Positions 15,511-35,595 of a stretch of DNA of 40,772 bases are shown in pieces. The DNA comes from an uncultured Anaerolineaceae bacterium. GTDB taxonomy: Bacteria; Chloroflexota; Limnocylindria; Limnocylindrales; CSP1-4. The number at the start of each line of letters is the position of its first letter. Positions within the stretch are counted from its first letter, which is position 1. The notes under the pieces were generated by a model, which saw only the letters and a list, made by a program, of their open reading frames with translations, made no database searches and had not been told where the DNA came from. The stretch is from positions 1 to 40,772 of the forward strand of contig CAZVPS010000001.1 of the NCBI GenBank assembly GCA_964629105.1. Direction: 5' to 3'. A program made the position numbers and the translations under genes.

Positions 15511-15512
15511 CG

Positions 15513-16649
15513 ATGGCCAACAGCTCCCCGGTCGCGCCGGGCGACCAGGCGACCGCGACCCAGTACAACAACCTGCGCAGCGACGTCGTCGACCCGACCA
15601 GCGGCCACCGGCACGACGGTCTCGGGGCCGTCGCGGCCCTGCTCGCGCTCCTGGGCGACGGATCGGACGGCGACGTGACGATCAGCGGCAACACGACCCT
15701 CACGCGCGACATGTACTACAACACCCTCACCGTCAATGCGGGCGTCGTGCTCACGACCGACGGCTACCGCCTCTTCGTCCTGGGAACGTGCAACGTTCTC
15801 GGCACCATTCGCAACAACGGCAACACCGGATCGCTCGGTGCCAACGGCTTCGACGCGTACGCCGGCAGCGGCGTCTCGTGGGGCGGCAATACCGCCAATG
15901 CCCCCGGCGGCGCGGGCGCGACCGGCGGCACCGCTCGAACCCTTCCAGCGGGCGGTCCCGGCGGCGCGGGCGCGACAGGGGGCACGACCGCCTACGACAG
16001 CGGCACCAACTCACCCGGCAACAACTCGACCGGGCCGAGCCTGACCAATCAGGTGACGACGACGGCGAGTGCGGCCGGTGGGCCTGGCGGAGCGGGCGGC
16101 AACACGGGTGGGGCTGGCGGGACGAGCTCGGCTGGCGCAGCCGGGACGTTGGTCACGAAGGGCCAGTCGCGGTCACTGATCGCGCTTGGTTCCCTGATCC
16201 CGCTGGATTCGACCACCGCCTACACGGCTCCCGGCGGAGCCGGCGGGGCCGGTGGCGGAGCGAAGGCGAACCAGGCAGCCGGCGGTGGAGGTGGCGGCGG
16301 CGGGGCCGGCGGTGGCTGCATCTTCCTCATCTGCCGCACGCTCGCTGGGAACGGGACGATCGAGGCGAAGGGCGGCGCCGGCGGGGCTGGCGGGGCTGGC
16401 GGCAACGGTGGGGCACAGGCCAACCGGACCGGCGGTGGGGGCGGTGGAGGCGGTGCCGGTGGGACCGGCGGCGTGATCCTGCTCGCCTACCCCGTGAAGA
16501 CGTTCACCGGGACCCTCAGCGTTGCCGGCGGCGCCGGCGGAGCGGCAGGCGCGGCCGGGCTCAAGAGCGGCACCGGCTTTGATGGTGTCGCCGGCCAGCC
16601 CGGGAACACGGGCAACGCGGGACGCCTGATCCAGTGGAGCTTGCCATGA
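15513..16649 (+). CDS. glycine-rich minor tail / fibre protein
   Basis: Long GGAGG/GGxGG tracts interspersed with beta-helix-like turns (CIFLICRTLAGNGTIEAKGGAGG; GGVILLAYPVKTFTGTLSVAGG), as in actinophage glycine-rich tail proteins. Confidence 0.6.
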   Translation: MANSSPVAPGDQATATQYNNLRSDVVDPTSGHRHDGLGAVAALLALLGDGSDGDVTISGNTTLTRDMYYNTLTVNAGVVLTTDGYRLFVLGTCNVLGTIRNNGNTGSLGANGFDAYAGSGVSWGGNTANAPGGAGATGGTARTLPAGGPGGAGATGGTTAYDSGTNSPGNNSTGPSLTNQVTTTASAAGGPGGAGGNTGGAGGTSSAGAAGTLVTKGQSRSLIALGSLIPLDSTTAYTAPGGAGGAGGGAKANQAAGGGGGGGGAGGGCIFLICRTLAGNGTIEAKGGAGGAGGAGGNGGAQANRTGGGGGGGGAGGTGGVILLAYPVKTFTGTLSVAGGAGGAAGAAGLKSGTGFDGVAGQPGNTGNAGRLIQWSLP

Positions 16650-17191
16650 TCTCGCTCGTCTATGACCCGTCGCTCGTCCTCGATCCTGACGCCCTCGGAG
16701 GGTCTCTGGGGGCGGTCGCGCTCGTCGCTGGCGTCCCGCCGACGTTGGCCGATCGCATCACGCTGCCCGATGCGGGCTATGTCGTCGTACGCGAGACGTG
16801 GGCGGGGCTCGACGTGCTGCCGGGCCCGGTCACGCGCGACCAGATCGACGCGCTACCTGATCCCGGGCCGGATCCGCAGGCGGCCGCCGCGGTAGTTCAG
16901 GCTGCCGCCGGCCGTGTCCTGCACCTCCTCCAGACGACGCCGATTGATCCCGTCGCCCTCGACGCGAATCTCACGCTCTTGGCTGCGGCTCGAGCGATCC
17001 CTGACCCGCCGGCCGCAGACATAGCCGCCTTGGCAACGTTCCTCCCGCTACCCTCCCCGACCCTCGCCCAGACGGCGGCCGCCACGAAGGCGCTCATCCG
17101 CGTCCTTTCGAACTACGCAGAGGTCGTGCCAGCCCAGCGGGCCACGATCAACGTCCTTGCCGACACGATCCGCTTCATCCTCCAACGGTAG
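16646..17191 (+). CDS. hypothetical protein (last gene of the tail block)
   Basis: ATGA overlap with the fibre gene. Ala/Pro-rich; no recognisable motif. Confidence 0.4.
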   Translation: MISLVYDPSLVLDPDALGGSLGAVALVAGVPPTLADRITLPDAGYVVVRETWAGLDVLPGPVTRDQIDALPDPGPDPQAAAAVVQAAAGRVLHLLQTTPIDPVALDANLTLLAAARAIPDPPAADIAALATFLPLPSPTLAQTAAATKALIRVLSNYAEVVPAQRATINVLADTIRFILQR

Positions 17192-17732
17192 ACCGTCGGA
17201 GTGCCCGGCTGGCTCGCTCGAGGGGGGTCGACCCGATCCGCAACGGGACGTTCGTCCATTTCCGGTCCTGGATCGTCGCGGATACGTCGACCGTCGACGA
17301 TCCCCCAACCCGCTACGCCTGACATGGCAATGGGATTCGTGGCCAGGGTGGCCGCTCTGAGCAGGGACGGAGGTCCGGGTGACAGGCGGTTCAGCGGCGA
17401 CAGGACCGATCGGCGCGGAAACCGATTGTTGCCTGGCGGCTCCCGCGTGGGTACCATGCAGCGCAGCTGCGCGGAGGAGCCTCGTCGCCGGAGATCGCCT
17501 GAACCAATCGATTCGGAGGCGTTGATTCCCGGCGCCAAGGCCGCGCACGAGTGGGGATCGCCCGGTTGAAACCGGTATCCGCCCTGTCCAATCTGCGGCG
17601 CGATCCGATCCATCGATCCTGACAGCGGGGTTGCTCATGAGCGTCGCGATCGCTTTCGGCGATACGCACGCCTTCGTCTTTGGTGCACGAATACCAATAG
17701 GTCGGCCGTTCCTGCCTACGCACGAGGCCGAG

Positions 17733-18353
17733 ATGATTCCCGGGCTCATGGCCGCGGCCGTGAGGTCCGCGCGCCGAGACCGCCGGATCATCCTCGTGCC
17801 AGAGCTTCATGGGCCTTGCGGCGTCGTCGACCTTGGACTTGTGGAGACCACCGATGAGACCTTGTCGGCGCGTCTCAATCTAGGAGTGCCTCCTCTGCTC
17901 AACCAGCTAGACGCCGCCATCGTCGGATGCCTCGCCGCCCGAAGACCGATGACGTTGTCGGCGGTCGCTCAAGCCCTTGGGTGGCCAGAGCGTGACCTCT
18001 CCGGGCGTGCAACAGGCTTGCGAAGGCGTGGCGTCATCGCTCAGCTACGGTCTGGATGCTTGGTGCGGCCGGAGGGCTTGAAGCCGCTCGGACGGCTATC
18101 CGTGTTCGAAGCGAAGGTAGACGACTGGCAGCGGGGACTCGCACAGGCAGCGTCCTACGCCACCTGGTCGGACGACGCCACTCTGGCGCTCCAACGGCTT
18201 CCGCGCGACTCGTCTCGTGCACTTGCGATGGCGAGTGACCTCCGGCTCGGGCTTATCGCCAACGGGCACTGGGAGCGCAGGGCGGAATTCCAGCGACTGC
18301 CGCGTCAGACGCGAATGTGGGCCTCCGAGCACGTAGTCGCCGCACTCCTCTAG
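17733..18353 (+). CDS. PD-(D/E)xK nuclease-like protein with an inserted winged-helix segment
   Basis: ELHG..VVDLGLV ... SVFEAKVDDWQRGLAQAASY gives an E / D / ExK / Q..Y arrangement. The intervening LDAAIVGCLAARRPMTLSAVAQALGWPERDLSGRATGLRRRGVI looks like a wHTH. ATG 17733 has a GAGG 6 nt upstream. The track ORF starts at 17631 (alternative start). Confidence 0.5.
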   Translation: MIPGLMAAAVRSARRDRRIILVPELHGPCGVVDLGLVETTDETLSARLNLGVPPLLNQLDAAIVGCLAARRPMTLSAVAQALGWPERDLSGRATGLRRRGVIAQLRSGCLVRPEGLKPLGRLSVFEAKVDDWQRGLAQAASYATWSDDATLALQRLPRDSSRALAMASDLRLGLIANGHWERRAEFQRLPRQTRMWASEHVVAALL

Positions 18354-18359
18354 CTCTCG

Positions 18360-19233
18360 CTACCAGCCCTCTCCCGCCACATAGCCCTCCAGCCCGGCTT
18401 TGACCGCGCTCAGCCATCTTGCCGAGCCCGCTGAGAGCGGTCGAGCAAGGGTGTCCACCCGGACGAAATCAGCTAGCGCAGACGCATACCGGCCGAGCAG
18501 CCACGAGGCTCTCGCCCTGCGGTCGGGCAGTGCCTGGATTGCTGCCGCCTCGGATGCGAGGATGGCGAGGTGGCGTTCCCAAAGCGGATTTCCGTTGCCG
18601 GGGAGGACGCCGGGGACCAGCCGCGCCGATAGAGCCCGATCGTTCCGGAGGAGAAGCTCTGCCTCGGGTCGCTTCAGCACTCCATAGAGCCCCGCGTGCG
18701 TGATGCGGTGTGACGTCCTTCTTGTCGTCGTGCCGCTTTGAAACGCAACGGCCGAGAGTATCCGTTGTCGCAGATCCCATCCGGATCCGATCGCTGACGC
18801 ACCGGCCGCCATCGCGGGCAGACCGAACAGATCAGAGCACTGCACGACGACCTCGCATCGCCGTGACAGCGAGTCGACCGATCGACAGAGCCCGGTGATC
18901 TCGGCGGCCAGCGCCTGGGGCGGGTAGTCGAGATCTGGTCTCACGACGGAGATCAATACGCCGGCAGGTCGGAGCTGGGCGATCTGGCCAACGTAGTCGT
19001 CGAGAACACGCCCTTGCGACCAGAACGCTCCGGAGCCGATGATCGCCAGGCGGACCTCATTCCCCTGCGAGCGCGCCACCGAGGCCAGCTCGAGACTTCG
19101 GTCTGCGTCAAGCCCGATGGAACTCACCAAGGCGACAGCTGGAGCCACGGGAGGCAGCCCGAGATCGAGCTGAGCCCCTAGGGTTCGGAGCACGTGCCCA
19201 TTCAGGCGCGATGAGCTGCTGAGGTCGCTTCGC
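18360..19233 (-). pseudogene. gene X, C-terminal fragment (residues 88-377 of the reconstructed protein)
   Basis: The frame continues exactly from fragment 21970..22235 once the IS and one CTTCGC copy are removed. Residues encoded above 19233 in track ORF 18360..19514 are IS-derived. Confidence 0.8.
19228..19233. repeat. target-site duplication CTTCGC (right copy is at 21970-21975)
   Basis: Identical hexamers directly abut both IS termini. Confidence 0.85.
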
Positions 19234-19282
19234 TGCGTATTCCGCTGAATCCGATCACCCATTCCGGGGTTTTCGATCACCC
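19234..19282. repeat. IS21-family right terminal inverted repeat region
   Basis: TGCGTATTCCGCTGAATCCGATCACCCATTCCGG followed by GGTTTTCGATCACCC. Confidence 0.8.
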
Positions 19283-19335
19283 TCGATCGGAGGCCGCGGA
19301 GCGGCCGACGCGAGGGTTGGTTCACCCCCTGATGG

Positions 19336-20247
19336 TCACCTCCTCTCGGTGGTCTGCGGATAGTCTGGCACACCGCCCGTGGTGGGCGACGCTGGGGATC
19401 CGGGAGGGTCATCCATGCCTCCCCGGTGCTGGCGCGGCCGTCCTGGGCCGTCTGTGGTGGGCGGATCCGGCGTGATCGCCGGATCCGGGGCCGATACGAC
19501 CTCGGCTGGGTCATCAGCAGCCCTCGCCGCCCGGCGGCGCGAGTCGCCCTTGAGCTCCAGCCGATAGGCGTTGTGGACCAGGCGGTCGAGGATCGCGTCG
19601 GCGATGGTGGGCTCGCCGAGGGCCTCGTGCCAGTGGCCGACCGGCAGTTGGCTCGTCACGATGGTCGAGCGGAGGCCGTGGCGATCCTCGATCACCTCCA
19701 GCAGGTCGGCCGCCCGTGGAGCCGGCACCGGCTGGAGGCCGAGGTCATCGAGGACCAGGACATCGATCCGTGCCCAGCTCGCCATGAGCCGCGGCAGCCG
19801 GCCGTCAGCGCGTGCCAGCACCAGCTCGTCGAGCAGGCGCGGCACCCGCAGGTAGAGCGCGGTGTGACCCCGGCGGATGGCGGCGTGGGCGAGCGCGCAG
19901 GCGAGGAACGTCTTGCCCACCCCGGTCGGTCCGGTCACGAGCACGTTGCGATGGGCGGTCACCCAGTGGCCCTCGGCGAGGCCCAGGACGGTCGCCCGGT
20001 CGAGGCCCCGGGGGCCGCGCAGGTCGAGATCCTCGATGACCGCGTCGCTGCGGAGACGGGCGGCCTTGAGGTGGCGTGCCAGCCGGCGGTTGTCGCGGTC
20101 CTGCATCTCCCGGTCGACGAGCAGGCCGAGGCGCTCCTCGAACGAGAGGGCGGCGTAGTCGGGACGCTCCAGCTGGTCGAGGAGCGCGCGGGCCATGCCG
20201 GTCAGGGCGAGGGCGTGCAGCTTGTCGATCGTCGGTGTGATGAGCAT
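19336..20247 (-). CDS. istB: IS21-family helper ATPase IstB
   Basis: ATG at 20247. Walker A GPTGVGKT, Walker B VLVLDDLG, and the ILDRLVHNAYRLELKGDS tail. Carries an unusual Pro-rich C-terminal extension of about 55 aa that ends 102 bp inside the IS terminus. Confidence 0.9.
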   Translation of the reverse strand: MLITPTIDKLHALALTGMARALLDQLERPDYAALSFEERLGLLVDREMQDRDNRRLARHLKAARLRSDAVIEDLDLRGPRGLDRATVLGLAEGHWVTAHRNVLVTGPTGVGKTFLACALAHAAIRRGHTALYLRVPRLLDELVLARADGRLPRLMASWARIDVLVLDDLGLQPVPAPRAADLLEVIEDRHGLRSTIVTSQLPVGHWHEALGEPTIADAILDRLVHNAYRLELKGDSRRRAARAADDPAEVVSAPDPAITPDPPTTDGPGRPRQHRGGMDDPPGSPASPTTGGVPDYPQTTERR

Positions 20248-20263
20248 GCTGGAGATCTCCTCC

Positions 20264-21811
20264 TCACTCGTAGTAGCCGGCGCCACGCACGTTGGCGTGG
20301 TCGCCGATGGTGGTGACCGGCTCGGAGCCGGGCAGGGGCAGGCCGTCGAGCCCGCCTTTGAGGATCGACTCGACGCTGCGATACGACAGGGCACGGATGG
20401 CGAGCGCCCGGGCCGCCGCTGCCTCTGTGCGCTCGTCCCCATAGCGACGGCCGAGGCGCATGATCCCGAGACACGAGCGGAAGCCCTGCTCGGGGTGGGG
20501 CCGCGACGCCATGATCGCGCTCACCAGGGCGGCCGTGGCGGGTCCGGTCCCGCTGGCCCAGGCGACGATCCGCCCGGGCGTCCACTCCGCATGGCGGCGG
20601 TGCGCCTCGGGCATGTGCGCAGCGTCCGTGGTGAAGCGTCGCTGCTCGCCCGAGCGGCGGTGGCTCGCCACCCTCCTGCCGCGGTGGAGGACTTCCACGA
20701 TCGCAACCGTGACCCGGATGTCGCACCGCTCGCCGACGAGCCCGTAGGGCACGCTGTACCAGTGGCGGTCGACCTCGACGTGGTAGTCGATGTTGACCGT
20801 GGCGGTCTTCCAGGTGGCGAACTCGTAGGGCTGCGCGGGCAGGGGCCGCAGGGCCGGGCGGTCGAGCTCCGCGAACAGACTGAGCCGGGACCCGGGCAGC
20901 TTCTTGAACGGGCGCGCGTTGAGCCACACGAGCCGCTCGGCGATCGCCTCGTTCGCCTCCGCGATGGAGAAGAACGTGCGATGGCGCAGGGCGGCCAGGA
21001 TCCAGCGCTCGACGACCAGCACGCCGGATTCCGCCTTCGCCTTGTCCCGGGGCTTCCGGGGGCGAGCCGGGATGACGGCACACCCGTAATGGGCGGCCAT
21101 CTCGGCGTAGGTGGGGTTGACGTCCGGCTCGTAGCGGTGGGCCCGGGTGACGCCTGAGCGGAGGTTGTCCGGCACGATCAGTCGGGTGCAGCCGCCGAGG
21201 AAGGCGAACGTGTGGACGTGCGCGGCGATCCAGTGGGGCAGCTCCTGGCTGGGCAGCGACTCGGCATAGGTGTAGCTGCTGGCGCCGAGCACCGCCACGA
21301 ACAGCTGGGCCGGCGTGATCTCCCCGGTCAGCGGGTCGGTGATCGGGATGGTCTGCCCGGCGAAGTCGACGAACAGCTTCTCGCCGGCGCGGTGCTCCTG
21401 GCGCATGACCACGTCGAGATGACGCTGCCAGGCCCGGTAGTGGCGGCAGAACTGGGTGTACTGGTAGCCGTCGGGCCGGCGCTCCTTGTATTCCATGTGC
21501 AGCAACTGGAGGGTCATGCCCTTTCGTCGCAGTTCGCGATGGACCGTCGGCCAGTCGGGCATCGGTCGGCTCGCCGATGGCGGCGGCTCCGGCTTGGCGA
21601 ACAGGCGGGCCTCGAGCGCAGCGTCGTCCAGGTCGTCGGGCAGCGGCCAGCCAAAGCCCGCGGCTCGGGCCCGGGCGAGGTGGTCGGCGACGGTGGTGTA
21701 GGGCAGGCCCGTGGCCGCCCCGGTCGCGCGGCGGCTCAAGCCCTCGCCGAGGGCGAGGCGGAGGATCTCGCGGATCTTGCGCATGGCGGAACGGGGGCGT
21801 GACACCGGCAT
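20264..21811 (-). CDS. istA: IS21-family transposase IstA
   Basis: N-terminal HTH (MRKIREILRL). DDE core candidates (FVDFAG, IVPDNLRSGV, KAKAESGV). Confidence 0.9.
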   Translation of the reverse strand: MPVSRPRSAMRKIREILRLALGEGLSRRATGAATGLPYTTVADHLARARAAGFGWPLPDDLDDAALEARLFAKPEPPPSASRPMPDWPTVHRELRRKGMTLQLLHMEYKERRPDGYQYTQFCRHYRAWQRHLDVVMRQEHRAGEKLFVDFAGQTIPITDPLTGEITPAQLFVAVLGASSYTYAESLPSQELPHWIAAHVHTFAFLGGCTRLIVPDNLRSGVTRAHRYEPDVNPTYAEMAAHYGCAVIPARPRKPRDKAKAESGVLVVERWILAALRHRTFFSIAEANEAIAERLVWLNARPFKKLPGSRLSLFAELDRPALRPLPAQPYEFATWKTATVNIDYHVEVDRHWYSVPYGLVGERCDIRVTVAIVEVLHRGRRVASHRRSGEQRRFTTDAAHMPEAHRRHAEWTPGRIVAWASGTGPATAALVSAIMASRPHPEQGFRSCLGIMRLGRRYGDERTEAAAARALAIRALSYRSVESILKGGLDGLPLPGSEPVTTIGDHANVRGAGYYE

Positions 21812-21896
21812 CTGGCTCCTCGAACGGGTGGATCGTCCGAGGCACCATGCCGGGTCCAGCCTGCCCTCACGTCACCGCTCTGCGGCCTCCCTCAGC

Positions 21897-21969
21897 GGGT
21901 GATCGAAAACTCCGAAACGGCTGATCGGATTGGACCGAAACGGCTGATCGGTTTCAGCCGAAATCCGCA
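21897..21969. repeat. IS21-family left terminal inverted repeat region with a duplicated 17-mer
   Basis: CCGAAACGGCTGATCGG occurs twice (21912-21928 and 21935-21951; 23-nt period). This is the multiple terminal repeat architecture typical of IS21 ends. Confidence 0.8.
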
Positions 21970-21975
21970 CTTCGC
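21970..21975. repeat. target-site duplication CTTCGC (left copy is at 19228-19233)
   Basis: Identical hexamer abutting the IS terminus. Confidence 0.85.
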
Positions 21976-22235
21976 GGACCATCCCACAGGTCCCACGTGT
22001 CATACAACGCCCAGCGATTGGTCGAGGTCAGCAGGGCTCCGTGGGTGGTTGGATCGAACAGAACCTCGCCGCCGACGGCGGTGATTCTGGCGATCAGATC
22101 GCGGGCTCCAAGGCGTCGCGGCTGCGTAGCGGACGGAGTGTCAAACGGGGACAGCATGATCCCCGCTGCGTGTCCACGCTGAATCAGCGTCGTGGCCCAC
22201 AGCGGTTTCCCGGACCGGCCACTGTCCTGAAGCAT
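21970..22235 (-). pseudogene. gene X, N-terminal fragment (residues 1-89)
   Basis: ATG at 22235 with a GAGGAG 4 nt upstream and 8 nt after the kinase TGA. Reads MLQDSGRSGKPLW...WDLWDGPRS, then runs into the IS terminus and stops 16 nt inside it. Confidence 0.8.
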
Positions 22236-22243
22236 TACTCCTC

Positions 22244-23077
22244 TCACAGCGCGACCAGGGCATCGAGGGCCTCGCGGGCATCCAGGTATCGACGCGCAAG
22301 TTGTCGCTGGAGGCAGGTGTCGACGAACTCGACCTGCCCAGCGGATAGGTCAGGCCGTGGGATGCCCACGCTGCTCGCCTGCCCGTCTCGCAACCGCTGT
22401 GCGTAATCGGCGAAGGCGCCGGCATACGGGATCGGGCAAACCCCGGTCAAAGCCTCGTACATCAACACGCCAAGACCGAAGACGTCCGACGCGAACGTGG
22501 GTCGAGCCGCTGGCGAAACGTGTTCCGGCGACATGTACCCAGGGCTGCCGGGGTCCAGGGAACCGGTAATCGTGGTCTTCGCAAGCAGGCGTGCGATGCC
22601 CGGATCCATGACCTTGAAGGTGCCGTCGAGCAGGCAGCGGATGTTGCGTGGACTCAAGTCTCGATGGACGACATCTGCATCTAGGAAGGCCGTCAAGCCG
22701 GCAGCGACTTGCCGAGCCATCTCTGATACCGCTGACCACGCTTGAGGCGTACCCATCCGCGCCTCAAGGTCCTCGCCGTCCAGAAACTCCTCCATCCAGC
22801 AGACGGCCACCGGCGGAGATCCCAGTTCTACCAGACCACTCTCAAGCCGAACGACGTTAGGGTGGGAAATCGAGGCGAGCACGCCGACCTCACGCCTGGC
22901 ACGCTCCAGCACGATCGGGGCATACGGCGGAACGAGCTCGATCAGTTTGACGATTGTCGCTCCATGCGGTCCATCGGCGAGGGCGACCAGCTTCTGGCCA
23001 CCTCCCCCCGCGGGCCTCATGTTCGTTACCCCGAGCGCGGCGGAGGCCGCCGCGATCATTGCTGGATCCATTGCCAC
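22244..23077 (-). CDS. stand-alone Hanks-type (eukaryotic-like) protein kinase domain, 277 aa
   Basis: GGGGQKLV glycine loop, TIVK lysine, REVGVL glutamate, HRDLSPRN catalytic loop (22643-22666), DPG (22598-22606), YMSPEH. GTG start 7 nt after AAGAGGG and 21 nt after the res stop. Confidence 0.85.
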   Translation of the reverse strand: MAMDPAMIAAASAALGVTNMRPAGGGGQKLVALADGPHGATIVKLIELVPPYAPIVLERARREVGVLASISHPNVVRLESGLVELGSPPVAVCWMEEFLDGEDLEARMGTPQAWSAVSEMARQVAAGLTAFLDADVVHRDLSPRNIRCLLDGTFKVMDPGIARLLAKTTITGSLDPGSPGYMSPEHVSPAARPTFASDVFGLGVLMYEALTGVCPIPYAGAFADYAQRLRDGQASSVGIPRPDLSAGQVEFVDTCLQRQLARRYLDAREALDALVAL

Positions 23078-23098
23078 GAGATCGCCCTCTTGGAGGTA

Positions 23099-26077
23099 CT
23101 ACACCTCGTCGGCCGTGACGGCCACCGCGAACGGCACGCCCAACTCCTTGAAGTGCGCCTGCCCGCATCGGACCTTGTCGGCCTCGCTGGTACGGAGATT
23201 CAGGAAGTCTCGAGTCCCCTTGGTCTCACGGACCAGATAGAACGCATGCCCGTCGTCCTTGAGGATGGCCCAGTCCGGGTTGTACCTGCCCAGGGGCGTA
23301 TCGATCTGGAACCAGCCGGGCAGCTTCACGAAGAGCTTGATGTCGTCGCGTTCGTCAAGGCGCGTCGCAAACTCCCGCTCCACCTCGGAGTCGTAGACCA
23401 CGTACTCGTAGACCGAGTGGTTCACTTGGACGGCGGACAGGTAGTTGATCAGCTCCTCGTTCTTGAAGAGCAGCATCTCCCAAGCCGCGCTCGACCCCTC
23501 GCCATCAACACGCTCGTACTTGATGCCGTCGACGAGCAGTCGGCGTAGCTCGTGTTTGAGGATCGCCGACACCGCGTCCATGAACCGTTGGGGATTGTTG
23601 AAGAGCTCTCCGAGGCGACCTGACTCGCGGAGCACCCGCACCAGCGTTGAGCGGGTGAGTTCGGTTTCGTTCTGCAGGTACGCGAGCAGATCGGGCACGG
23701 CGCGGCTGCCGTAGTCGATCCGCTCCTCAGCGACACTCATGGCGGTGGTCGTCATCCCGGCCCGCTCGACACCGAGGCGGCCGGCGGCGACGCGGATGGT
23801 GGGCGCCTCGATGCGGTCCATCCGCTTCAGTGCGTCGACCGCGCGTCGCACAAGGTCATCTGTCGCGAACTCGACCCGGTAAGTCGTTCTGGGTTTGATG
23901 CGATCCCAGAGCACCCGGAACTCGGGCGTGAGCGTCACGTCCTTCTTAAGCCGGTTCGGCCCGTCATCTCGCGCACGGCGAATGTGGCGTTCGATCTGGT
24001 AGGAGGAGAGGAGATCAATCACAGCGGGCGCAAGGTCGCGCTGTGCCTCCGGCAGATCGATCTTGAACCCCGCCCTCCTTGGATTGAAGGCGGGGAGGAT
24101 TCGGCCCGCCGCGTCGACCATGGCCTGCGCGATGAGGGCCACCCGAATCGCCCCAGCTGCTTCGGACCCGATCGGCTGCTCGACATCGTCCACGACGCGC
24201 GTGAGCTTGGCCAGGGCGGTCAGCGGCACCTTGCCGAAGGTCACGCCGCAGTCGTCCTCGTACTCGGTCTGCAGGGCGCGGGCGAACTCCTCGTAGCTCT
24301 CGTTCGCCATGACGTAGAGCTTGTTGACCGAGTCATCGAAGACCCGCACGCCGTTCTGGTCCACCGGCAGGCGCAGCCCGCGCCCGATCTCCTGGCGCTT
24401 CTTGACCGCACTCCGAGTTTCGTTGAGGGTGCAGATCTGGAACACGTTTGGGTTGTCCCAGCCCTCCCGCAGCGCCGAGTGGCTGAAGATGAAACGGAGC
24501 GGTTCGTCGAGTGAGAGCAGCCGCTCCTTCTCCTTCATGATCAGGTTGTAGACGTCGTCGTCTGCCTGCGTGTCGCCCCGGGTGTCCTTGAGCACCCCCT
24601 TCTTGTCCGCTGCGAAGTAGCCATTGTGGAGCCGATCGATCGGCTCCTTGAGCCACTCCAGCTCGCTGAAGCGTTCCTCGGCCGCCAAGAGCGCCAGTTC
24701 AGCCTCGAACACTTCGGCGAACTTGCCCTTCACCGGCGCGCCTGACTCGTCGTAGTCGCGGTAGTTGGCGACGCGGTCCACGAAGAAGAGGCTCAGGACC
24801 TTGATGCCGCGGCCCCGAAGCTGCAGTTCCTTCTCCAGGTGCCGCTTGACCGTGTGCTTGATCTGGGTCCGCCAGACGTCGTCGCGCATGCCACCCGATT
24901 CCTGGCCGATGCGTAGGGTACGGCCGCTGGTGAAGCGGATGAACTCGCCCCCGGGCTCTGCGTTGATTTCGGCCACGGAGAAGCCTTGGGCGTAGTTGGC
25001 ACGTTCGCCGGAGAGCGCGAACAGGTCCGCGCCCTGCTTCACTCTGATCGTCCGTTCACGAGGGCCTTTCGGCGCCCGTACGTGGATTCGGAGCTTGGCC
25101 TTGATGCCATTTCGGTAGTCGATCTCCTCGACGCGTACGAAGGCGTCGTTGGCTGACCCCTCCGTCACGGCGCTCGCGACCACGATCTGCTTCACAAGCT
25201 TCAACTCGAAGGCGCGAATGGGGTCGAGCCGGTAGACCAGGTTGTACGGGTTGCGATGGGTGGCGGAGTATCGCAGCGTGCAAAGCGGATTGAGCGCCCT
25301 GATCGCTTCTTGCGCCCGGTCGGTCGAGTCCACGCTTTGCGGCTCATCGATGATGACGATGGGCCGGGCCGCCTGGACGAACTCGATCGGCTGGCGGCCG
25401 GAGAGCTTGTCGCTCTCCTTGTATATGACATTGCTCCGCTGCTCGGCCTCGGTGCCGATGAAGTTCTTCCGGAAGGCGTCGATGTTGATGATGAGGATCT
25501 GCAGGGTGGTACTGGAGGCGAACTGCCGCAGTCGGTTGATCCTCCGTGCGTCGTAGACGAAGTGTTCGAAGGGCAGGTTGTTGTAGAGGGCCCGGAAGTG
25601 CTCGCCGGTGATTTCGATGTTCTTGAGCACGCCCTCGCGGATTGCGACGCTCGGCACCACGACGATGAACTTCTGGAATCCGTACCGATGCGATAGCTCG
25701 AAGATGGTGCGGAGGTAGACGTAGGTCTTACCGGTGCCGGTCTCCATTTCGACCGAGAAGTGCGGACAGGTTCGCGACTGGTTGGCCGGGCCGTCGAAGA
25801 TTTCCCAGGCCTCCAGTGGTGCAGCGGGATCGGATGCCTCGATCTCGTTGCGCGCCTGGATGGCACGCGTATTCGAGATGAGCGTTTCCTCTGCTAGTAA
25901 GAGGCGATTTCCCGCACCGAGTTCAGTGTGGTCCTGCCCCGAGAACAGCCCGTCCGCCGTCCCAATATCGATGACGCTGTACTCGGGCGCGCCCTCCGGC
26001 TGGCCCTCAAAGAGCCCGGTGACGGCGGAGACCGCGTCGAGCTGGAATTGTTGGTTGGCGTCGAATTGCAGCTTCAC
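23099..26077 (-). CDS. res: type III restriction enzyme Res subunit (helicase-nuclease)
   Basis: METGTGKTYVY (motif I), VIIDEPQS (motif II), and C-terminal PD-ExK (YNPDWAIL...YLVRETKG). 992 aa; starts 10 nt after mod. Confidence 0.9.
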   Translation of the reverse strand: MKLQFDANQQFQLDAVSAVTGLFEGQPEGAPEYSVIDIGTADGLFSGQDHTELGAGNRLLLAEETLISNTRAIQARNEIEASDPAAPLEAWEIFDGPANQSRTCPHFSVEMETGTGKTYVYLRTIFELSHRYGFQKFIVVVPSVAIREGVLKNIEITGEHFRALYNNLPFEHFVYDARRINRLRQFASSTTLQILIINIDAFRKNFIGTEAEQRSNVIYKESDKLSGRQPIEFVQAARPIVIIDEPQSVDSTDRAQEAIRALNPLCTLRYSATHRNPYNLVYRLDPIRAFELKLVKQIVVASAVTEGSANDAFVRVEEIDYRNGIKAKLRIHVRAPKGPRERTIRVKQGADLFALSGERANYAQGFSVAEINAEPGGEFIRFTSGRTLRIGQESGGMRDDVWRTQIKHTVKRHLEKELQLRGRGIKVLSLFFVDRVANYRDYDESGAPVKGKFAEVFEAELALLAAEERFSELEWLKEPIDRLHNGYFAADKKGVLKDTRGDTQADDDVYNLIMKEKERLLSLDEPLRFIFSHSALREGWDNPNVFQICTLNETRSAVKKRQEIGRGLRLPVDQNGVRVFDDSVNKLYVMANESYEEFARALQTEYEDDCGVTFGKVPLTALAKLTRVVDDVEQPIGSEAAGAIRVALIAQAMVDAAGRILPAFNPRRAGFKIDLPEAQRDLAPAVIDLLSSYQIERHIRRARDDGPNRLKKDVTLTPEFRVLWDRIKPRTTYRVEFATDDLVRRAVDALKRMDRIEAPTIRVAAGRLGVERAGMTTTAMSVAEERIDYGSRAVPDLLAYLQNETELTRSTLVRVLRESGRLGELFNNPQRFMDAVSAILKHELRRLLVDGIKYERVDGEGSSAAWEMLLFKNEELINYLSAVQVNHSVYEYVVYDSEVEREFATRLDERDDIKLFVKLPGWFQIDTPLGRYNPDWAILKDDGHAFYLVRETKGTRDFLNLRTSEADKVRCGQAHFKELGVPFAVAVTADEV

Positions 26078-26087
26078 GGCGCGACCG

Positions 26088-27971
26088 TCACGCCGTTCTG
26101 AAGCTCGTCACGCCCTGTGTCTTGAAGATCTGCACAGCGTTTGCCTTGAGCTGGTCGTTGCCGGCAAAGCCCTCGTCCAGGCAGACCACGCGCTCGGGTC
26201 TCCGCTCCGCCATGGCACGGATCAGGTCCAGCGTCAGCGCACGCTCGAGGCAGATCAGGAGCGCGCCACCCGCCGCGCTGTGGACCGTGGTCCCTGCTAG
26301 CTCGAGCGTCTCAACCGGAGTGGTGAGTACGAAGCCGCTCTTCAGCAGGATCTCGTAGAGCAGGTCCTCCGGTGTACGCCCCTCGCGGAGGTGGTCGACG
26401 TGCAGTTCGAGTTGTTCCTCCAGGGCCGCGATTTCGTGCGCCACGCCGGCGTTCCAAGGATTGAAGTTGGACTCGGCAAGCTTGAAGACGCGGAAGCCGC
26501 GGTCTTGATTGTGGGCGCGGTCCAGGTCGAGCTTGCCTGCGTCCTTGTCGTTCAGTTCCTTGATGACCCGGCGGACGCGCTCCTTGGTGATGTCGGCGAT
26601 GGTCGGATAGTCCTCGCGGTCGGTGGGTTCCGGAAGCTGGACGAGGATAAACGTGCGTTTGCCGCCGTCTTGCGAATTCAGATCGAGAACGGCGTGCGCC
26701 GTGGTTCCTGAGCCCGCGAAGAAGTCCAGGACGACCCCCTCTTCATCACCGCCCATCCCAATGCACTTCGCCAGCAATCCGACCGGCTTCGGACTGTCGA
26801 AGACCTTCCCGCCGAACATGGCTCTCATGTCCCTTGAGGCCTTCTTGTTTCCCTCAATGTCCGTCCAGAGATTGGAGGGTTGCTTCTTGCGGCCCTCCAG
26901 GTAGAACTTCTGATACGGTCGCCAACTCAGGCGGCCGCCGTCCGGGATCTCTTTCCATTCGATCAGACCATCCCGTTCGAGCTCTTCGTACCTCCTTCGG
27001 CCGCAGATCCAGCGACTCTCATAGCCGCCCGGTCCAACGGGGAAGACTTCGACGCCGTCGGGGCCTTTGATCGGGTAGTACATGCTCGGTCGGTCCTCGC
27101 GGCGATCCTCCCCGCCCGTCCGTCTGAGTGATCGGGTTAGGTAGCGTCCCCGTTCGTCCTCTTGGTCATAGATCTTCGCGTCCTCCTCGGACAGCGACAG
27201 ACCCTGAAGGCCAGCTTCGGCGGACTTGGAGAAGATGACTACGTAGTCAACGATGTTGACGAGGATGTCGCTGCCGCCGCCAGTAGGAGTCCCAGTACTC
27301 CGGGTGACCATCCCTACGAAGTTCTCTTCGCCGAAGACTTCCTTGCCCAGCTCAATCAGGTGGCTCTGCTCGTGGTCGTCGATGGAGACGAAGATCATCC
27401 CCTCGTCGGCCAAGAGATTGCGAGCCAGGTAGAGCCGCGGGTACATCATGTTTAACCACTTCGAGTGGAAGCGGCCGTCTGTCTCGGTGTTGGTGCTGAA
27501 CTTCTTGCCATCTGCGTCCGCCTGCCCCGTGTATTCCAGGTAGGTCTGGAGACTCTCGGCGTAGTTGTCTGGGTAGATGAAGTCGTTGCCCGTGTTGTAG
27601 GGCGGGTCGATGTAGATCATCTTGACCTTGCCCAGGTACGACTTCTGGAGAAGCTTCAGTACCTCGAGGTTGTCCCCCTCGATGATGAGGTGCTCGGTGG
27701 CATCGAAGTTGACGCTCTCTTCCCGGATGGGACGGAGCGTCCCGAGGCTCGGCATTTGGATCGTCCTGAAGCAGTCGGCCTTGCCGGGCCAGCTCATGCC
27801 ATAGCGTTCCTTGCCGACGTCCACGGCGTCGCCGAGCGCAGCTTTCAGCCGGTCGAAGTCGAGCCTCCCGCCTTCGGTGCGGATCTCGGGGAATAGGCGC
27901 AACAGCTCCTGCACCTTGTCCTCGGCGAGGTCCAGCGAGTGCTGGTCGAGATGTTCGGGCTGGTCGGTCAC
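26088..27971 (-). CDS. mod: type III restriction-modification Mod methyltransferase
   Basis: IYIDPPYNTGNDFIY (motif IV) precedes LDFFAGSGTTAHAV (motif I), i.e. beta-class order. 627 aa. GGAG lies 6 nt before the GTG start. Confidence 0.9.
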   Translation of the reverse strand: MTDQPEHLDQHSLDLAEDKVQELLRLFPEIRTEGGRLDFDRLKAALGDAVDVGKERYGMSWPGKADCFRTIQMPSLGTLRPIREESVNFDATEHLIIEGDNLEVLKLLQKSYLGKVKMIYIDPPYNTGNDFIYPDNYAESLQTYLEYTGQADADGKKFSTNTETDGRFHSKWLNMMYPRLYLARNLLADEGMIFVSIDDHEQSHLIELGKEVFGEENFVGMVTRSTGTPTGGGSDILVNIVDYVVIFSKSAEAGLQGLSLSEEDAKIYDQEDERGRYLTRSLRRTGGEDRREDRPSMYYPIKGPDGVEVFPVGPGGYESRWICGRRRYEELERDGLIEWKEIPDGGRLSWRPYQKFYLEGRKKQPSNLWTDIEGNKKASRDMRAMFGGKVFDSPKPVGLLAKCIGMGGDEEGVVLDFFAGSGTTAHAVLDLNSQDGGKRTFILVQLPEPTDREDYPTIADITKERVRRVIKELNDKDAGKLDLDRAHNQDRGFRVFKLAESNFNPWNAGVAHEIAALEEQLELHVDHLREGRTPEDLLYEILLKSGFVLTTPVETLELAGTTVHSAAGGALLICLERALTLDLIRAMAERRPERVVCLDEGFAGNDQLKANAVQIFKTQGVTSFRTA

Positions 27972-28029: not shown

Positions 28030-29079
28030 TCACCTCACGGCACGCAGGCGCGGTCGATCGGCGAGATGGGCACGGAATTCGGCCTCCGGGATGCCGGTAA
28101 TGGCCACGAGATCCGAGATCGAGTAGTCGTGCTGCTGTCGGTGGACATCCACGATCGCGTGCACGACCGTCGGCTCCTCGATGGGCACCTCCACTGGCTC
28201 GGCGAGCCGGTAGCCCAGCCGACTCAGCTGCGCGAACAATCCCTTCGCCCGACCCGGTGAGATCACTCCGAGGTCGCGCGCGCGCATTACGAGGGCGGCC
28301 ATCGAGACCTTCCAATAGGCCTTGAGCTGAGCTGCCCGGACGAGGTCGAGTCGCAGAAGATCCGACTTGACCTCTCGCGCCGGCATCAGGAATTCAGCCG
28401 CGAACCGATCCGCCTCGTGCTCCATCTCGCTATTTGGGACGCGGTGCATGACCATGTGCCCGATTTCGTGCGCCAGCGAAAACCGCAGGCGATCCCCCGG
28501 CGCCTCGGCGTTCAGGAGAAAGACGGGCGGCATGTGGGGCGGCCAGTGGCTCACGGCATCGAGCTGGCGAGTGCCGAACGGCAGGCGATAGACGATGCCC
28601 CCGGCCGACTCGACGGCTGCGACGAGATCGACGACGGGTCCGAGCGGCAGCCGCCAGGTCGCCCGGACCAGCTGGGCAATCCGATCAGGTGATCCGTCGA
28701 ACTGGTCGATGTCCAGCACCGGGAACTCGTTCTCGGCGTCGAGGGTGATATCTCGCAGGAGCGGAGTGAGAGCGATGCGCAGGACGTTCGCGGTCGCCTG
28801 GACAACTCGAAGCCTGCCAACAGGCAGGGTGGCCTGCCTGCGGTGATAGAGACATGCCGACCCGAACCCGTAGACCTGCTCAGTCCTAAAGAAGAACTCG
28901 ACCGGCCAGTCCAGGGCAATGGCAATCCGCTCCAGCGTGTCTCGCGGCGCAAGGACGATGCCGTTCTCGAACTTCGAGATGTAGCCCTGCGTGAGTCCGG
29001 CGCGCAGTGCGAGTTCGGATTGGGTCAGGCCTCTGTACTCGCGGACCAGAGTCAGCATGGCCGGATTTGCACCAGCCAC
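28030..29079 (-). CDS. fused XRE-family HTH / ImmA-IrrE (COG2856) zinc metallopeptidase
   Basis: N-terminal LREYRGLTQSELALRAGLTQGYISKFENG (HTH_XRE). Central HEIGH zinc motif with a downstream EADRFAAEFLMP. Start is GTG 29079 or ATG 29058. Confidence 0.85.
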   Translation of the reverse strand: MAGANPAMLTLVREYRGLTQSELALRAGLTQGYISKFENGIVLAPRDTLERIAIALDWPVEFFFRTEQVYGFGSACLYHRRQATLPVGRLRVVQATANVLRIALTPLLRDITLDAENEFPVLDIDQFDGSPDRIAQLVRATWRLPLGPVVDLVAAVESAGGIVYRLPFGTRQLDAVSHWPPHMPPVFLLNAEAPGDRLRFSLAHEIGHMVMHRVPNSEMEHEADRFAAEFLMPAREVKSDLLRLDLVRAAQLKAYWKVSMAALVMRARDLGVISPGRAKGLFAQLSRLGYRLAEPVEVPIEEPTVVHAIVDVHRQQHDYSISDLVAITGIPEAEFRAHLADRPRLRAVR

Positions 29080-29720
29080 TACTTCGCCTCCTCGTCCTCC
29101 GAGGGCTTCGGCCTCGTCGAGCGAGGCGTCGCCGGCCTGGGCTGGTCACCTGCGGGCGGCAACGCGACCGGCATGCCAGCCGCAGGTGGCAAGTCGATCT
29201 GCCAGAGAACCTGGCCATGCCGTAGCAGCACGAGAACGAGCCGGTCGATGCCCGTTTCCAGCCTGTCGAGCAGGTATCCCGCGACGATCATCGGCACCGG
29301 TCGCCAAAGCGAGAGCTGCTGCATTTTCGTCTGCGCCTGATCGGCGAACAGCTGCTGCTGGCGCGTTGGAATCCCTCGGATCTGGAGGTTGTTGTCGAGC
29401 TTCTTGAACCGCAGCAGAGCCAGCGAGAAGTCCAAGATCAGGAGGCCGTGGACCCGCGCCTTGCCGACTTCGTTCATCGAGTCGAACAGGTCTTCAGCGC
29501 GCCTCGTTGCGTGGTCCCACACGATTCTGGCGCGGGCGCTCTTGCCAAGCGGGCGACCCTGCGGAGTGCTTCGGACAGCCTCCCAAGCGACCCAACCTGA
29601 CATCAGGCAGTCCGACAAGAGGGGGAAGTATGGGGCGAAGAGGGCCCTCGCCTCGGCCTCCGATATCAGCTCGTCGTCCACTGCGGCAGCGTACTCTGGC
29701 GATCGCAAATCGTCAAGCAA
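29079..29720 (-). CDS. hypothetical protein U2 (213 aa)
   Basis: TTG start 4 nt after GGGAA. Its stop overlaps the XRE-ImmA start by 1 nt. Composition is ordinary; no motif recognised. Confidence 0.5.
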   Translation of the reverse strand: MLDDLRSPEYAAAVDDELISEAEARALFAPYFPLLSDCLMSGWVAWEAVRSTPQGRPLGKSARARIVWDHATRRAEDLFDSMNEVGKARVHGLLILDFSLALLRFKKLDNNLQIRGIPTRQQQLFADQAQTKMQQLSLWRPVPMIVAGYLLDRLETGIDRLVLVLLRHGQVLWQIDLPPAAGMPVALPPAGDQPRPATPRSTRPKPSEDEEAK

Positions 29721-29732
29721 TTATTCCCGATA

Positions 29733-31235
29733 TTATGACTCGCCCGTACCAGCGTCGCGTTCTTGGTACCGCTTGCGACGGCGGAGTGTCTTGGCTACCC
29801 GTTCAGGCAGCCACGGTTCCGGGCTGGCGAGGTCCGTCTTGATCGCTCGGTCCGTCCTCGCGCGTTCGTCGATCTCCTGCTCGATGAGGTTGATCTCGTC
29901 CTCGATCGTGTGGTCATGCGTCTCTGCGCTGAGCCGCCGCCGACGCTCCCGCTGCGAGAAGCGATACCGCTCGCGGTCGGTGCAGAAGCTTGAACGGCGC
30001 GCGTCGAGGGTCAGGAACGGCTGCCCGCACTCCCGGCAGAGGGCGGCACCACGCTGTCCCTCGGTCACCCGGCGCAGACCTTCGAGCAGCTGGAGGTAGA
30101 CGGGCGCGAGGAGTGAGCTCCACCAGCGCCGCTCATGAACGACGAGCGGACCGGGGAAGCGGTCAGCGAGGTTCTCGCCCTCCCGCGTCAGGTCGCGCTC
30201 GAGCCCCGCTCGGCCGATCTCCACCTGATACTCCGCAGCCCGCCGGACGTACGGAGCCAGCAGGCGACGCTCTAGCTCCACCAAACCCCACCAGTCGGCG
30301 CTGAGTCGCCCGACTGGCGATCGGCCGGAGGGCGGGCCCAGCTCGATGTCGTAGCCCGCCCAGTCCTCCTGGTACCAGCTTGCGAGCGGGACCCACAGGA
30401 TCGGGATGCCTTCCGCGGTGATCCGCTGCCAAGCCGCGTGCGCGGTGGGCCACCACTGCTCGGTGAACTGCTTCCGCGTGACGCCCACGAGGTTGTACTC
30501 GCTGAGTGAGCCGCCTTTGACCACGTCATCGAACCGGGCATAGTGCTGCATCAGGGGCGTGATGTGCGACTCGAAGTTGCTGGACCCACCGAGCCACAGC
30601 GCCCCACCGGTCGGATCGAGCAGCGCGGGCTGCGCCCAGGCCGGGTCCCAGCCCTCGTGCGGCTGCCAGCCGCGCCGCGGGGGAACGGCTCGCTCGCGCT
30701 CGTCGCTCAACCGAGCCAGAGCCATGAGGTGCCAACGCACGTTCGCCTGCTGCTGGAGAACGTTGAGCGGGGCGTCGTGGAAGCTCGCGTCCTCGGGCGG
30801 CCAGTCGTGGGACTCGAAGTCGTCGCCCGGGAAGAAGTGAGCGAGGTCAAGCACCCCATGCGCCTGGTACCACGGCCGGGCAGCCTTGCGATTCGTCAGG
30901 TGGACCCGGGCGAACTCCTCAGCGAGCAATAGGTCGCTCGCGACTCGCTCAAAGGGGTCATACCCGGCGTCAGTGAGGTCGCCAACGATGTCTCCCTGGT
31001 TCCCGAAGTCGTTGCCGCGATACAGGATCTTCACCTCAACGGGCAACCGCAGGCGACCGTCACCGGCGAAGCGAGGACGGAGGCTCACTCCAGAGTATCT
31101 CCGCACGATGTCATCGACAGATTCGTTGTTGCCGTGGACACGTCGCGCCTCTAGAATGTCGGAAGCGTCACCAGCAATGTGCGTGGACGCGATGACACGG
31201 AGGATAGCGCAAGTGTCGACGCCAGGGAAGCCCAT
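29733..31235 (-). CDS. hypothetical protein U1 (about 450-500 aa), Trp-rich, with a C-terminal Cys cluster and a basic coiled-coil tail
   Basis: Long protein-like ORF. ALCRECGQPFLTLDARRSSFC followed by RERRRRL and IEDEINLIEQEIDERA. Start is uncertain: ATG 31235 overlaps the divergent HTH start, and GTG 31088 lies 9 nt after GGAGA. The part of track ORF 29733..31871 above 31235 is antisense to real genes. Confidence 0.55.
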   Translation of the reverse strand: MGFPGVDTCAILRVIASTHIAGDASDILEARRVHGNNESVDDIVRRYSGVSLRPRFAGDGRLRLPVEVKILYRGNDFGNQGDIVGDLTDAGYDPFERVASDLLLAEEFARVHLTNRKAARPWYQAHGVLDLAHFFPGDDFESHDWPPEDASFHDAPLNVLQQQANVRWHLMALARLSDERERAVPPRRGWQPHEGWDPAWAQPALLDPTGGALWLGGSSNFESHITPLMQHYARFDDVVKGGSLSEYNLVGVTRKQFTEQWWPTAHAAWQRITAEGIPILWVPLASWYQEDWAGYDIELGPPSGRSPVGRLSADWWGLVELERRLLAPYVRRAAEYQVEIGRAGLERDLTREGENLADRFPGPLVVHERRWWSSLLAPVYLQLLEGLRRVTEGQRGAALCRECGQPFLTLDARRSSFCTDRERYRFSQRERRRRLSAETHDHTIEDEINLIEQEIDERARTDRAIKTDLASPEPWLPERVAKTLRRRKRYQERDAGTGES

Positions 31236-31428
31236 GGATGTGGTGGACGATTCCCGTGGGCGCCTGCTCCGGATTGAGAACGTCGCGGAGCGCTTGTCGG
31301 TGAGCCGATCGATGGCCTGGAAGATCATCGACCTCGGCCTTTTGCGTTCGGTGCGCATCGGCCGAGCCGTGCGCGTCCGGCCGCAGGACCTCGAGGCGTA
31401 CCTCACCGATCCCGCCCGCGAGCGGTGA
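31234..31428 (+). CDS. excisionase-family / MerR-like HTH DNA-binding protein (64 aa)
   Basis: LLRIENVAERLSVSRSMAWKIIDLGLLRSVRIGRAVRVRPQDLEAYL matches the HTH_17 excisionase pattern. Its stop overlaps the start of the replication gene. Confidence 0.75.
   Translation: MDVVDDSRGRLLRIENVAERLSVSRSMAWKIIDLGLLRSVRIGRAVRVRPQDLEAYLTDPARER

Positions 31429-34046: not shown

Positions 34047-35595
<1,549 letters not shown>

Follow-up and report, generated by a model that had tools for sequence, protein, structure and literature searches.

The window analyzed in this work, a stretch of 40,772 nucleotides (nt) from contig CAZVPS010000001.1 of an uncultured Anaerolineaceae bacterium, contains most of a prophage, and in the accessory part of this prophage a Hanks-type Ser/Thr kinase is encoded next to the genes mod and res of a type III restriction-modification (R-M) system. 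We consider it probable that this region consists of two separate modules, which are neighbors in a prophage defense island: the type III R-M and an autonomous mobile cassette of three genes, encoding the kinase and two proteins here named X and Y, which most likely acts in the defense against phages or other mobile elements. The original prediction made from this sequence had taken the kinase and X as the added pair, and the third conserved gene, Y, was overlooked. What is new here is the kinase-X-Y combination, as a candidate kinase-containing defense system with two unannotated partner families; the R-M system and the insertion sequence (IS) of the IS21 family that interrupts gene X are ordinary. 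That the triad is autonomous, and not an accessory of the R-M, is in our opinion very probable, its assignment as a defense system is favored with some confidence, and any specific division of labor among the kinase, X and Y is put forward with low confidence.

Conservation of the kinase-X-Y cassette

The proteins of the region and their relatives were compared with four profile libraries, Pfam (2025), NCBIfam (June 2026), PADLOC-DB 2.0 and PHROGs. In a word-indexed search homologues of X were rare and fell into 18 clusters, all with 280-388 amino acids (aa) and none with a Pfam domain, and a profile search extended the family to 379 representatives at the 50% identity level. The genomic context was compared in 24 independent lineages, which comprise the window together with the near-identical prophage L028/L029, the sister prophages L001-3 and L032/33, the loci L004-6 with L013, L007, L008-10, L011 and L012, and others (loci are numbered with the prefix L). 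Loci L013-L023 are eleven genome loci from Chloroflexota metagenome-assembled genomes (MAGs), Rhodococcus, Amycolatopsis (two), Streptomyces (two), Clavibacter, Nocardia, and Pseudonocardiales and Actinomycetota MAGs, and further loci come from the Dietzia plasmid pDK313-58 (L026), one IMG/VR contig (L027), a distant branch (L024/L030/L031) and L025.

A kinase of 273-306 aa is encoded immediately upstream of X in all 24 lineages, the kinase stop and the X start overlapping by 4 nt in most loci, and a homologue of Y adjoins X in each of the 23 lineages with enough downstream sequence. In the window the gene encoding Y (17631-18353, plus strand; 238/240 aa) converges on X, its stop codon lying 6 nt from that of X; in L030 and L031, which belong to the most distant branch, it is co-directional and not convergent, yet it is present (hidden Markov model E ~1e-19). 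The triad is kept in every lineage sampled, from 98% down to ~20-27% identity to the X of the window, and the three proteins vary together in their identity to the copies in the window (Spearman 0.70-0.80). Since Y is kept despite its flipped orientation and the identities co-vary, the three genes appear to be functionally linked, and the link between the kinase and X that had been proposed from the window is borne out by their constant adjacency.

These lineages span Actinomycetota and Chloroflexota, with hosts that include Streptomyces, Rhodococcus, Nocardia, Amycolatopsis and Clavibacter, and the cassette is carried by different mobile elements: prophages (window, L001, L032), islands resembling actinomycete or other integrative and conjugative elements (AICE/ICE), with integrase/TraG, HTH_17/FtsK-SpoIIIE or RepSA genes (L007, L008, L011), and the mobilizable Dietzia plasmid pDK313-58.

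Relationship between the cassette and the restriction-modification genes

The first module is an ordinary, intact type III R-M of the classical EcoP15I type. Mod (26088-27971, minus strand; 627 aa) matches PADLOC MTase_III (6e-193) over residues 6-625 and Pfam N6_N4_Mtase (PF01555, 2.3e-31), and Res (23099-26077, minus strand; 992 aa), a helicase-endonuclease encoded 10 nt after mod, matches PADLOC REase_III (4.5e-297) over residues 1-979 and contains the domains ResIII (PF04851) and RE_endonuc (PF19778, 3.2e-35); against NCBIfam PRK15483 it scores 329 bits, the equivalog cut-off being 564. Both proteins are therefore full-length members in the usual mod-to-res order, as the description of these genes as textbook type III had it, whereas the kinase, X and Y lie outside this family and travel independently of it; mod and res are neighbors of the cassette and not members.

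The same strand continues from mod and res to the kinase and X with gaps of 10, 21 and 8 nt (the last one with an ATG at 22235 as the start of X), a layout that our coordinates confirm, and there is no terminator-like site between the genes. A scan for sigma-70 promoters and intrinsic terminators between 17000 and 29800 gave nothing above shuffled controls, a scan that is uninformative at 70% GC. It was this layout that had led to the claim that the kinase and X extend or regulate the type III R-M, the four genes being one functional operon in which the kinase and X control Res and Mod by phosphorylation or add a cooperating abortive-infection layer. The arrangement is found throughout the prophage lineage, in which an R-M made of a helicase and an N6_N4 methylase always lies 21-28 nt upstream of the kinase, even after a non-orthologous swap, and in ~6 of ~20 informative lineages the cassette has DNA methylase or R-M genes next to it. 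Nevertheless, the wider comparison makes a single functional operon quite unlikely. The Res of the window is not detected in L001-L023 (tblastn, E<=1e-5) and Mod has one weak match there, in L014; the window's R-M recurs only in the near-identical prophage L028/L029, where Res is 87% identical to the window protein, versus 95-98% for the proteins of the triad. In the sister prophages, which share the layout of tail gene, Y, X and kinase and have an X with ~84% identity, the position of the R-M is occupied, 28 nt from the kinase, by a gene for a ResIII helicase of 991 aa and then one for an N6_N4 methylase of 870 aa (L032, 10734-16349; L001, 3-206). These proteins show 25-31% identity to those of the window over short stretches only and are encoded in the opposite gene order, and are thus non-orthologous, which points to a cassette-exchange hot spot of the prophage family.

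Several features of the sequence place the border between the modules just before the kinase. The nucleotide sequences of L001 and the window become homologous precisely at the start codon of the kinase, and the GC content at third codon positions (GC3) is 0.72 in the cassette, 0.82-0.85 in mod and res and 0.93 in the phage structural genes. Elsewhere the kinase has its own upstream intergenic region of 160-420 nt and most of the other loci have no adjacent R-M; where R-M genes do adjoin the cassette, they vary in type, strand and side. The conserved partner of kinase-X is Y, and not Mod or Res. Because Res and Mod are not conserved, the R-M is swapped, the homology has its edge at the kinase start, GC3 differs and the cassette has its own upstream region elsewhere, we regard the R-M and the triad as separate modules. 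Accordingly, the co-occurrence across genomes by which the original prediction was to be judged holds for the kinase with X and fails for type III mod and res, for which conserved co-occurrence is not observed. Its candidate kinase-linked defense module survives in part, a defense role being plausible and the setting being a defense island, and the unit concerned is kinase-X-Y without the R-M.

In the prophage lineage of the window, co-transcription of mod-res with kinase-X is nonetheless plausible, since the gap is of 21-28 nt and no native upstream region was carried along, and would be a local arrangement and not a property of the cassette. As the cassette arrived without an upstream promoter region, expression of its kinase-X genes in the window probably relies on read-through from mod-res.

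The kinase

The kinase (22244-23077, minus strand) is a stand-alone Hanks-type domain of 277 aa, as previously proposed, matching Pfam Pkinase (1.9e-24). In an alignment of 14 cassette kinases, residues K44, E63, H138-R-D140, N145 and D158 are conserved, the catalytic residues, among them the D140 that had been singled out before, being invariant, and the kinase of the window is predicted to be catalytically competent. Its stop codon and the start of X suggest that the two genes are translationally coupled, as judged from the overlap of their reading frames.

Comparison with known kinase-containing defense systems points to similarities that reside in this domain. The best PADLOC family is PD-T4-6 (PDLC04042, 4.7e-34, residues 43-275 against a 292-position profile), and ~20 further PD-T4-6 models match. 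PD-T4-6 is a single-gene Ser/Thr-kinase defense system obtained by functional selection in E. coli (PMC9519451), and the kinase of the window is likewise a small stand-alone Hanks kinase domain; in contrast to that system, defined as one gene, it is followed by X in all 24 lineages and has Y as a companion in all 23 with enough sequence, so that the profile match is there and the self-sufficiency of a single gene is not. The label itself is weak evidence, since the PD-T4-6 models are unspecific and also pick up the housekeeping PASTA kinase of all S. thermophilus genomes (PMC11514479).

A match to PglW (PADLOC, 1.3e-9; NCBIfam BREX_PglW, 32.6 bits against a cut-off of 990) reflects likeness at the level of the domain. 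As in Pgl/BREX type 2, a kinase gene stands beside a DNA methyltransferase gene, in what for Pgl is an actinomycete defense locus, but PglW has ~1,400 aa, the methylase of the window belongs to type III (Mod) and its presence is not conserved along with that of the kinase, and none of the proteins of the region matches PglX, PglY or PglZ. The pairing of a kinase with a methyltransferase had been thought to be restricted to Pgl/BREX type 2, which does not hold, as NCBIfam also lists the MADS kinase MAD6. The kinase matches the mad6/MAD6 models (1.3e-27 and 4.9e-25) and MADS, a defense system, combines a Hanks kinase with DNA methylation; however, the MAD6 profiles have 612-659 positions versus 277 aa, antiphage_MADS6 gives 88.1 bits against a curated cut-off of 460, and X and Y match no mad model, which places the triad outside MADS. 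The match to the Stk2 model is marginal (3.8e-7); Stk2 of Staphylococcus is reportedly a kinase-based abortive or defense module. TerY-P is said to be a three-gene kinase-containing defense system, and in this respect it is similar to the cassette, although there the partners of the kinase are a vWA protein and a PP2C phosphatase, and not a TIM barrel and a nuclease-like winged-helix protein. The triad resembles PD-T4-6, Stk2, MADS, Pgl and TerY-P only through the kinase domain.

Gene X and its interruption by an IS21-family element

In the window gene X is split by an IS21-family insertion sequence of 2,736 bp (19234-21969, minus strand) into a 5' fragment (21970-22247, minus strand) and a 3' fragment (18360-19233, minus strand), each of which includes one copy of the target duplication. 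This 6-bp duplication, CTTCGC, is direct and lies at 19228-19233 and 21970-21975, and the element ends in imperfect terminal inverted repeats of 57 nt, 82% complementary. It encodes IstA (20264-21811; Pfam rve and Mu-transpos_C_2) and IstB (about 19336-20247; IstB_IS21, PF01695, 3.1e-67), and with a natural empty site it shows the full set of features of the family. Tandem subterminal repeats of ~22-23 nt are found at both ends (19239-19282 and 21912-21957); such repeats are believed to be typical of IS21.

Excision of the element together with one copy of the duplication restores an open reading frame (ORF) of 377 aa. A natural uninterrupted allele, P0185 (377 aa; L028/L029), is 98% identical to this reconstruction, which the original prediction had proposed and which is hereby upheld; when L028 is aligned to the window, the match runs from 24479 to 21970 and then directly from 19232 to 17427, an exact empty site. 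The cassette copy of the window is inactivated by the insertion in X. The start of X was formerly placed at ATG 22235, and GTG 22247 is more probable, giving 381 aa and overlapping the kinase stop (GTGA). In fact, X homologues start with M-x-G-[LIV] ahead of a conserved LQDSGR, and the GTG start would give MRGVMLQDSG; these N-termini, together with the 4-nt overlap of kinase stop and X start in most homologous loci, favor that position.

No match to X or to up to 72 of its relatives was obtained in Pfam, NCBIfam, PADLOC or PHROGs, in agreement with the earlier statement that X has no nameable motif. Likewise, permissive Pfam scans of 72 members of the family gave no recurrent match, an X profile recovered only coiled-coil noise from the PDB sequences, nothing was found among BFVD structures at E<=0.001, and PGAP labels the Dietzia copy 'hypothetical protein'. 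The structural model is more informative. AlphaFold2, with an alignment of 18 sequences, gave a model with a predicted local distance difference test score (pLDDT) of 92.5 and a predicted TM-score (pTM) of 0.92, and X is predicted with high confidence to be a beta/alpha (TIM) barrel, at residues ~25-290, followed by a C-terminal three-helix bundle (302-375). The alternating beta/alpha-like segments that had been noticed in the sequence thus find their place in the model. Foldseek relates it to many TIM barrels with a probability of 0.99-1.00, the best E-value being only 2.5e-4 and the TM-scores 0.3-0.5, and the neighbors are generic: ribulose-phosphate epimerase, PriA/HisA, old yellow enzyme (OYE), DAHP synthase, GH20/GH18 and tRNA-guanine transglycosylase (TGT).

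Among 72 family members with 16-59% identity, D221 and G231 are invariant and G25, D61, P118, G238, W239, R244 and H308 are conserved in at least 90%. In TIM barrels the active site usually sits at the strand ends, and judging from the predicted positions of the strands, D61 (in an FDPxTH motif), D221 and the GSGWD motif appear to fall at or just past such ends, which suggests that X is an enzyme. A loop of lower confidence at residues 251-270 is rich in Thr, Ser and Arg (FQSGTTTRRTSHRITH), where at least 90% of 18 close homologues share R263 and T265, and the extreme C-terminus (375-377) consists of an invariant E-G followed by W or L. As a speculation, the loop with R263/T265 and the C-terminal E-G-[W/L] could serve in regulation or as phospho-acceptor, and in the binding of partners.

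A precedent for a TIM-barrel enzyme inside a multi-gene defense system is found in QatABCD, in which QatD is a TatD-like TIM-barrel nuclease (PMC13434339). In contrast to QatD, the TatD HxH metal site is absent from the conserved positions of the X family, X matches no PADLOC model and has no detectable homology to QatD, and the partner genes differ.

An apparent kinase-X fusion, P0088 (524 aa; L025, GCA_024181965.1, BQXS01008985.1), which at first resembled Rosetta-stone evidence, was discarded as an intron-style gene model, because on L025 the kinase ends in a stop and X lies in another frame. The contig of L025 looks bacterial, though it is part of a eukaryote assembly.

Protein Y

The AlphaFold2 model of Y (pLDDT 84.9) has the order alpha-beta-beta-[insert]-beta-alpha-beta. 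Residues E32, E58, D67, E160-A-K162 and Q172 are invariant, and at least 90% of the members share Y176; the conserved residues map to helix 33-45, strands 52-57 and 68-73, the ~60-residue insert, strand 155-162 and helix 166-176. This is the canonical order of PD-(D/E)xK enzymes, many members having a literal 'PD' and 'EAK', and it includes a RecB-like QxxxY. Because the invariant E...D...ExK...Q falls on the canonical order of strands and helices, Y looks like a nuclease of the PD-(D/E)xK type. For the nuclease core no significant match to a known nuclease was obtained by Foldseek or by PDB and Pfam profiles, even with the insert deleted. The insert is a winged helix of the Lrp/AsnC/MarR type, a predicted DNA-binding domain: it matches 7fby in a PDB hmmsearch (0.0015) and MarR, ArsR and IclR domains by Foldseek (probability 0.99-1.00), and Pfam HTH_20 is found in 12 of 23 members and HTH_AsnC in 8 of 23, all under the gathering thresholds. 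Permissive Pfam scans of the same 23 members returned helix-turn-helix (HTH) families only.

The combination of a winged helix with a nuclease-like motif in Y, next to a TIM barrel, raises the hypothesis that the cassette resembles a modification-restriction system, in which X would be a transglycosylase-like DNA modifier, as DpdA/TGT, Y the cognate endonuclease acting on unmodified or foreign DNA, and the kinase a regulator. In fact, TGTs have the top query-normalized TM-scores among the PDB matches of X (0.41-0.49), a viral queuine tRNA-ribosyltransferase is also among its structural matches, and a set of convergent enzyme and nuclease genes, each with its own promoter, is reminiscent of many R-M pairs. 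However, the TGT matches are weak (E ~3e-3 to 5e-3) and not better than those of dozens of unrelated TIM barrels, none of up to 72 members of the X family has a matching TGT/DpdA profile and the PDB profile search was empty in this respect, no Zn-site cysteines of the TGT type are conserved in the family, and X matches no PADLOC model, though the library includes DpdE models of the Dpd system. The insertion in X is also informative: the Y of the window is intact with all its catalytic residues, a situation which should be lethal were X a protective modifier. The cells survive with X destroyed and Y intact, so that an antidote role of X towards Y is unlikely; this speaks against the hypothesis, and we consider a modification-restriction cassette to be rather improbable.

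Defense and the proposed roles of the three proteins

In several lineages the cassette has neighbors related to defense. In L014 (Chloroflexia MAG, 10619-17036) these are a type II methylase, an SNF2/PLD helicase of the DrmD/BrxH/HmaA type (Hma/DISARM-like) and an HmaB-like methylase; in L020 (Amycolatopsis, 10641-16561) pPIWI-RE adjoins the cassette (PprPIWI, 1.5e-205; PprDinG, 1e-245); and other neighbors are a type I methylase (L023), a type IIG-like protein (L008), a TnsB-like transposase (L015), an N-6 methylase fragment (L026), NERD and UvrD proteins (L011, L012) and, in the window, the type III R-M and an RmrA-like HTH-M78 gene. The cassette ORFs have a lower GC3 than many flanking genes in several genome loci. 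In addition to the insertion in the X of the window, L015 (Rhodococcus sp. 1R11, 7150-7995) has an in-frame stop in the conserved ERARRE motif of the kinase, with X and Y intact, which is a second independent inactivation of a single gene or possibly a sequencing error. Loss of costly defense genes is common, and the neighbors, the GC3 and the single-gene knock-outs form a pattern typical of defense cargo.

The same cassette could alternatively serve mobile elements as an addiction or maintenance module, or be a niche regulatory or metabolic unit with a kinase-controlled TIM barrel and Y as a winged-helix transcription factor. It does ride on AICE-like islands, a plasmid and prophages, the winged helix is the only part of Y detectable in databases, and the nearest folds of X, from ribulose-phosphate epimerase and PriA/HisA to OYE and DAHP synthase, are metabolic. 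Single genes are nevertheless lost alone, as X by the insertion and the L015 kinase by a nonsense codon, contrary to strict toxin-antitoxin logic; no metabolic genes are consistently found nearby, whereas defense genes recur as neighbors; the invariant acidic and Lys residues of Y favor catalysis over DNA binding alone; and no shared operator or palindrome emerged when the regions upstream of the kinase were searched in 16 loci. A role outside defense is consequently unlikely in our view.

Other observations weigh against a separate defense cassette. The defense role is argued from guilt by association, X and Y are named by no library scanned, the structural matches of X point to no specific family or substrate, and the PD-T4-6 match of the kinase is unspecific. 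In Y the searches by Foldseek and by PDB and Pfam profiles detect only the winged helix, the nuclease assignment being drawn from motif and topology. In the phage databases X has one match in IMG/VR and none in INPHARED. Finally, the R-M that always precedes the kinase on the same strand in the prophage lineage makes a functional interplay between the two modules possible. A description of the kinase-X-Y triad was found neither in the profile libraries nor in the literature, whose coverage was incomplete, so that this is absence of evidence only.

Within the reading of the triad as a defense system, the kinase may be the sensing or signaling component that responds to infection, and it may control X, possibly via the conserved Thr/Arg-rich surface loop around R263/T265. 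The putative active site of X would be an Asp/Asp/Arg/His constellation (D61, D221, R244 and H308), and its substrate could be a nucleotide, a sugar-phosphate or a nucleic acid, as suggested by the phosphate-binding barrels among its nearest folds; Y would bind and cleave DNA. Based on these considerations we tentatively hypothesize, as a possibility that falls somewhat short of probable, that kinase-X-Y is an undescribed anti-phage or anti-plasmid immune system present in Actinomycetota and Chloroflexota. In such a system the Hanks kinase would activate X, a new kind of TIM-barrel effector directed at nucleotides or nucleic acids, Y would act alongside it as a PD-(D/E)xK nuclease guided by its winged helix, and in some prophages the cassette would be linked in transcription to interchangeable R-Ms upstream of it, giving a layered defense.

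If the cassette is a defense system, it would be a three-component, kinase-signaled addition to the small set of phosphorylation-based bacterial immunity and would bring in two new protein families, one of TIM-barrel enzymes and one of nuclease-like proteins into which a winged helix is inserted, both covered by none of the four libraries. Phage resistance in the host genera matters for industry and plant pathology. Regarding annotation, tools of the PADLOC type would report a solitary 'PD-T4-6' for the kinase and overlook its obligatory partners, and a reading of the window locus alone would wrongly join the cassette to the type III R-M. For the source genome this matters only modestly, its R-M being ordinary and its cassette disrupted by the insertion sequence.

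The prophage and its accessory island

The GC content of the window as a whole is ~70%, and the prophage is marked by tape-measure and tail genes (plus strand, up to ~17.2 kb), a primase/helicase gene (31425-33680, plus strand; PHROG 4e-106), a serine integrase gene (34047-35540, plus strand) and a tRNA-Pro(CGG) (35519-35595, minus strand), features which bear out the earlier placement of the locus in a prophage accessory island. Between the tail genes and the primase lies an accessory block of lower GC, whose minus strand carries mod, res, the kinase and the start of X.

Directly upstream of mod, an RmrA-like gene encoding an HTH and an M78 peptidase (28030-29079, minus strand) matches PADLOC RmrA (2.6e-60) and, under the cut-off of that model, the NCBIfam spr1629-family antitoxin (3e-30). 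It is preceded by a translationally coupled ORF of 213 aa (29079-29720, minus strand; 1-nt overlap) with no match in any library scanned, and the two genes may form a RosmerTA-like toxin-antitoxin defense pair. The island also contains an ORF of up to 712 aa (29733-31871, minus strand) with a coding-like GC3 of 0.79-0.82, which has no match in Pfam, PADLOC, PHROGs or NCBIfam and whose 5' end overlaps the primase ORF, so that its start position is uncertain. An ORF of 576 aa (31902-33632, minus strand) was rejected as spurious, because the opposite strand encodes the primase/helicase. The tRNA-Pro(CGG), overlapped by the 3' end of the serine integrase gene, is the likely attachment site of the prophage, and past it the GC content climbs to 76%, that of the host DNA.

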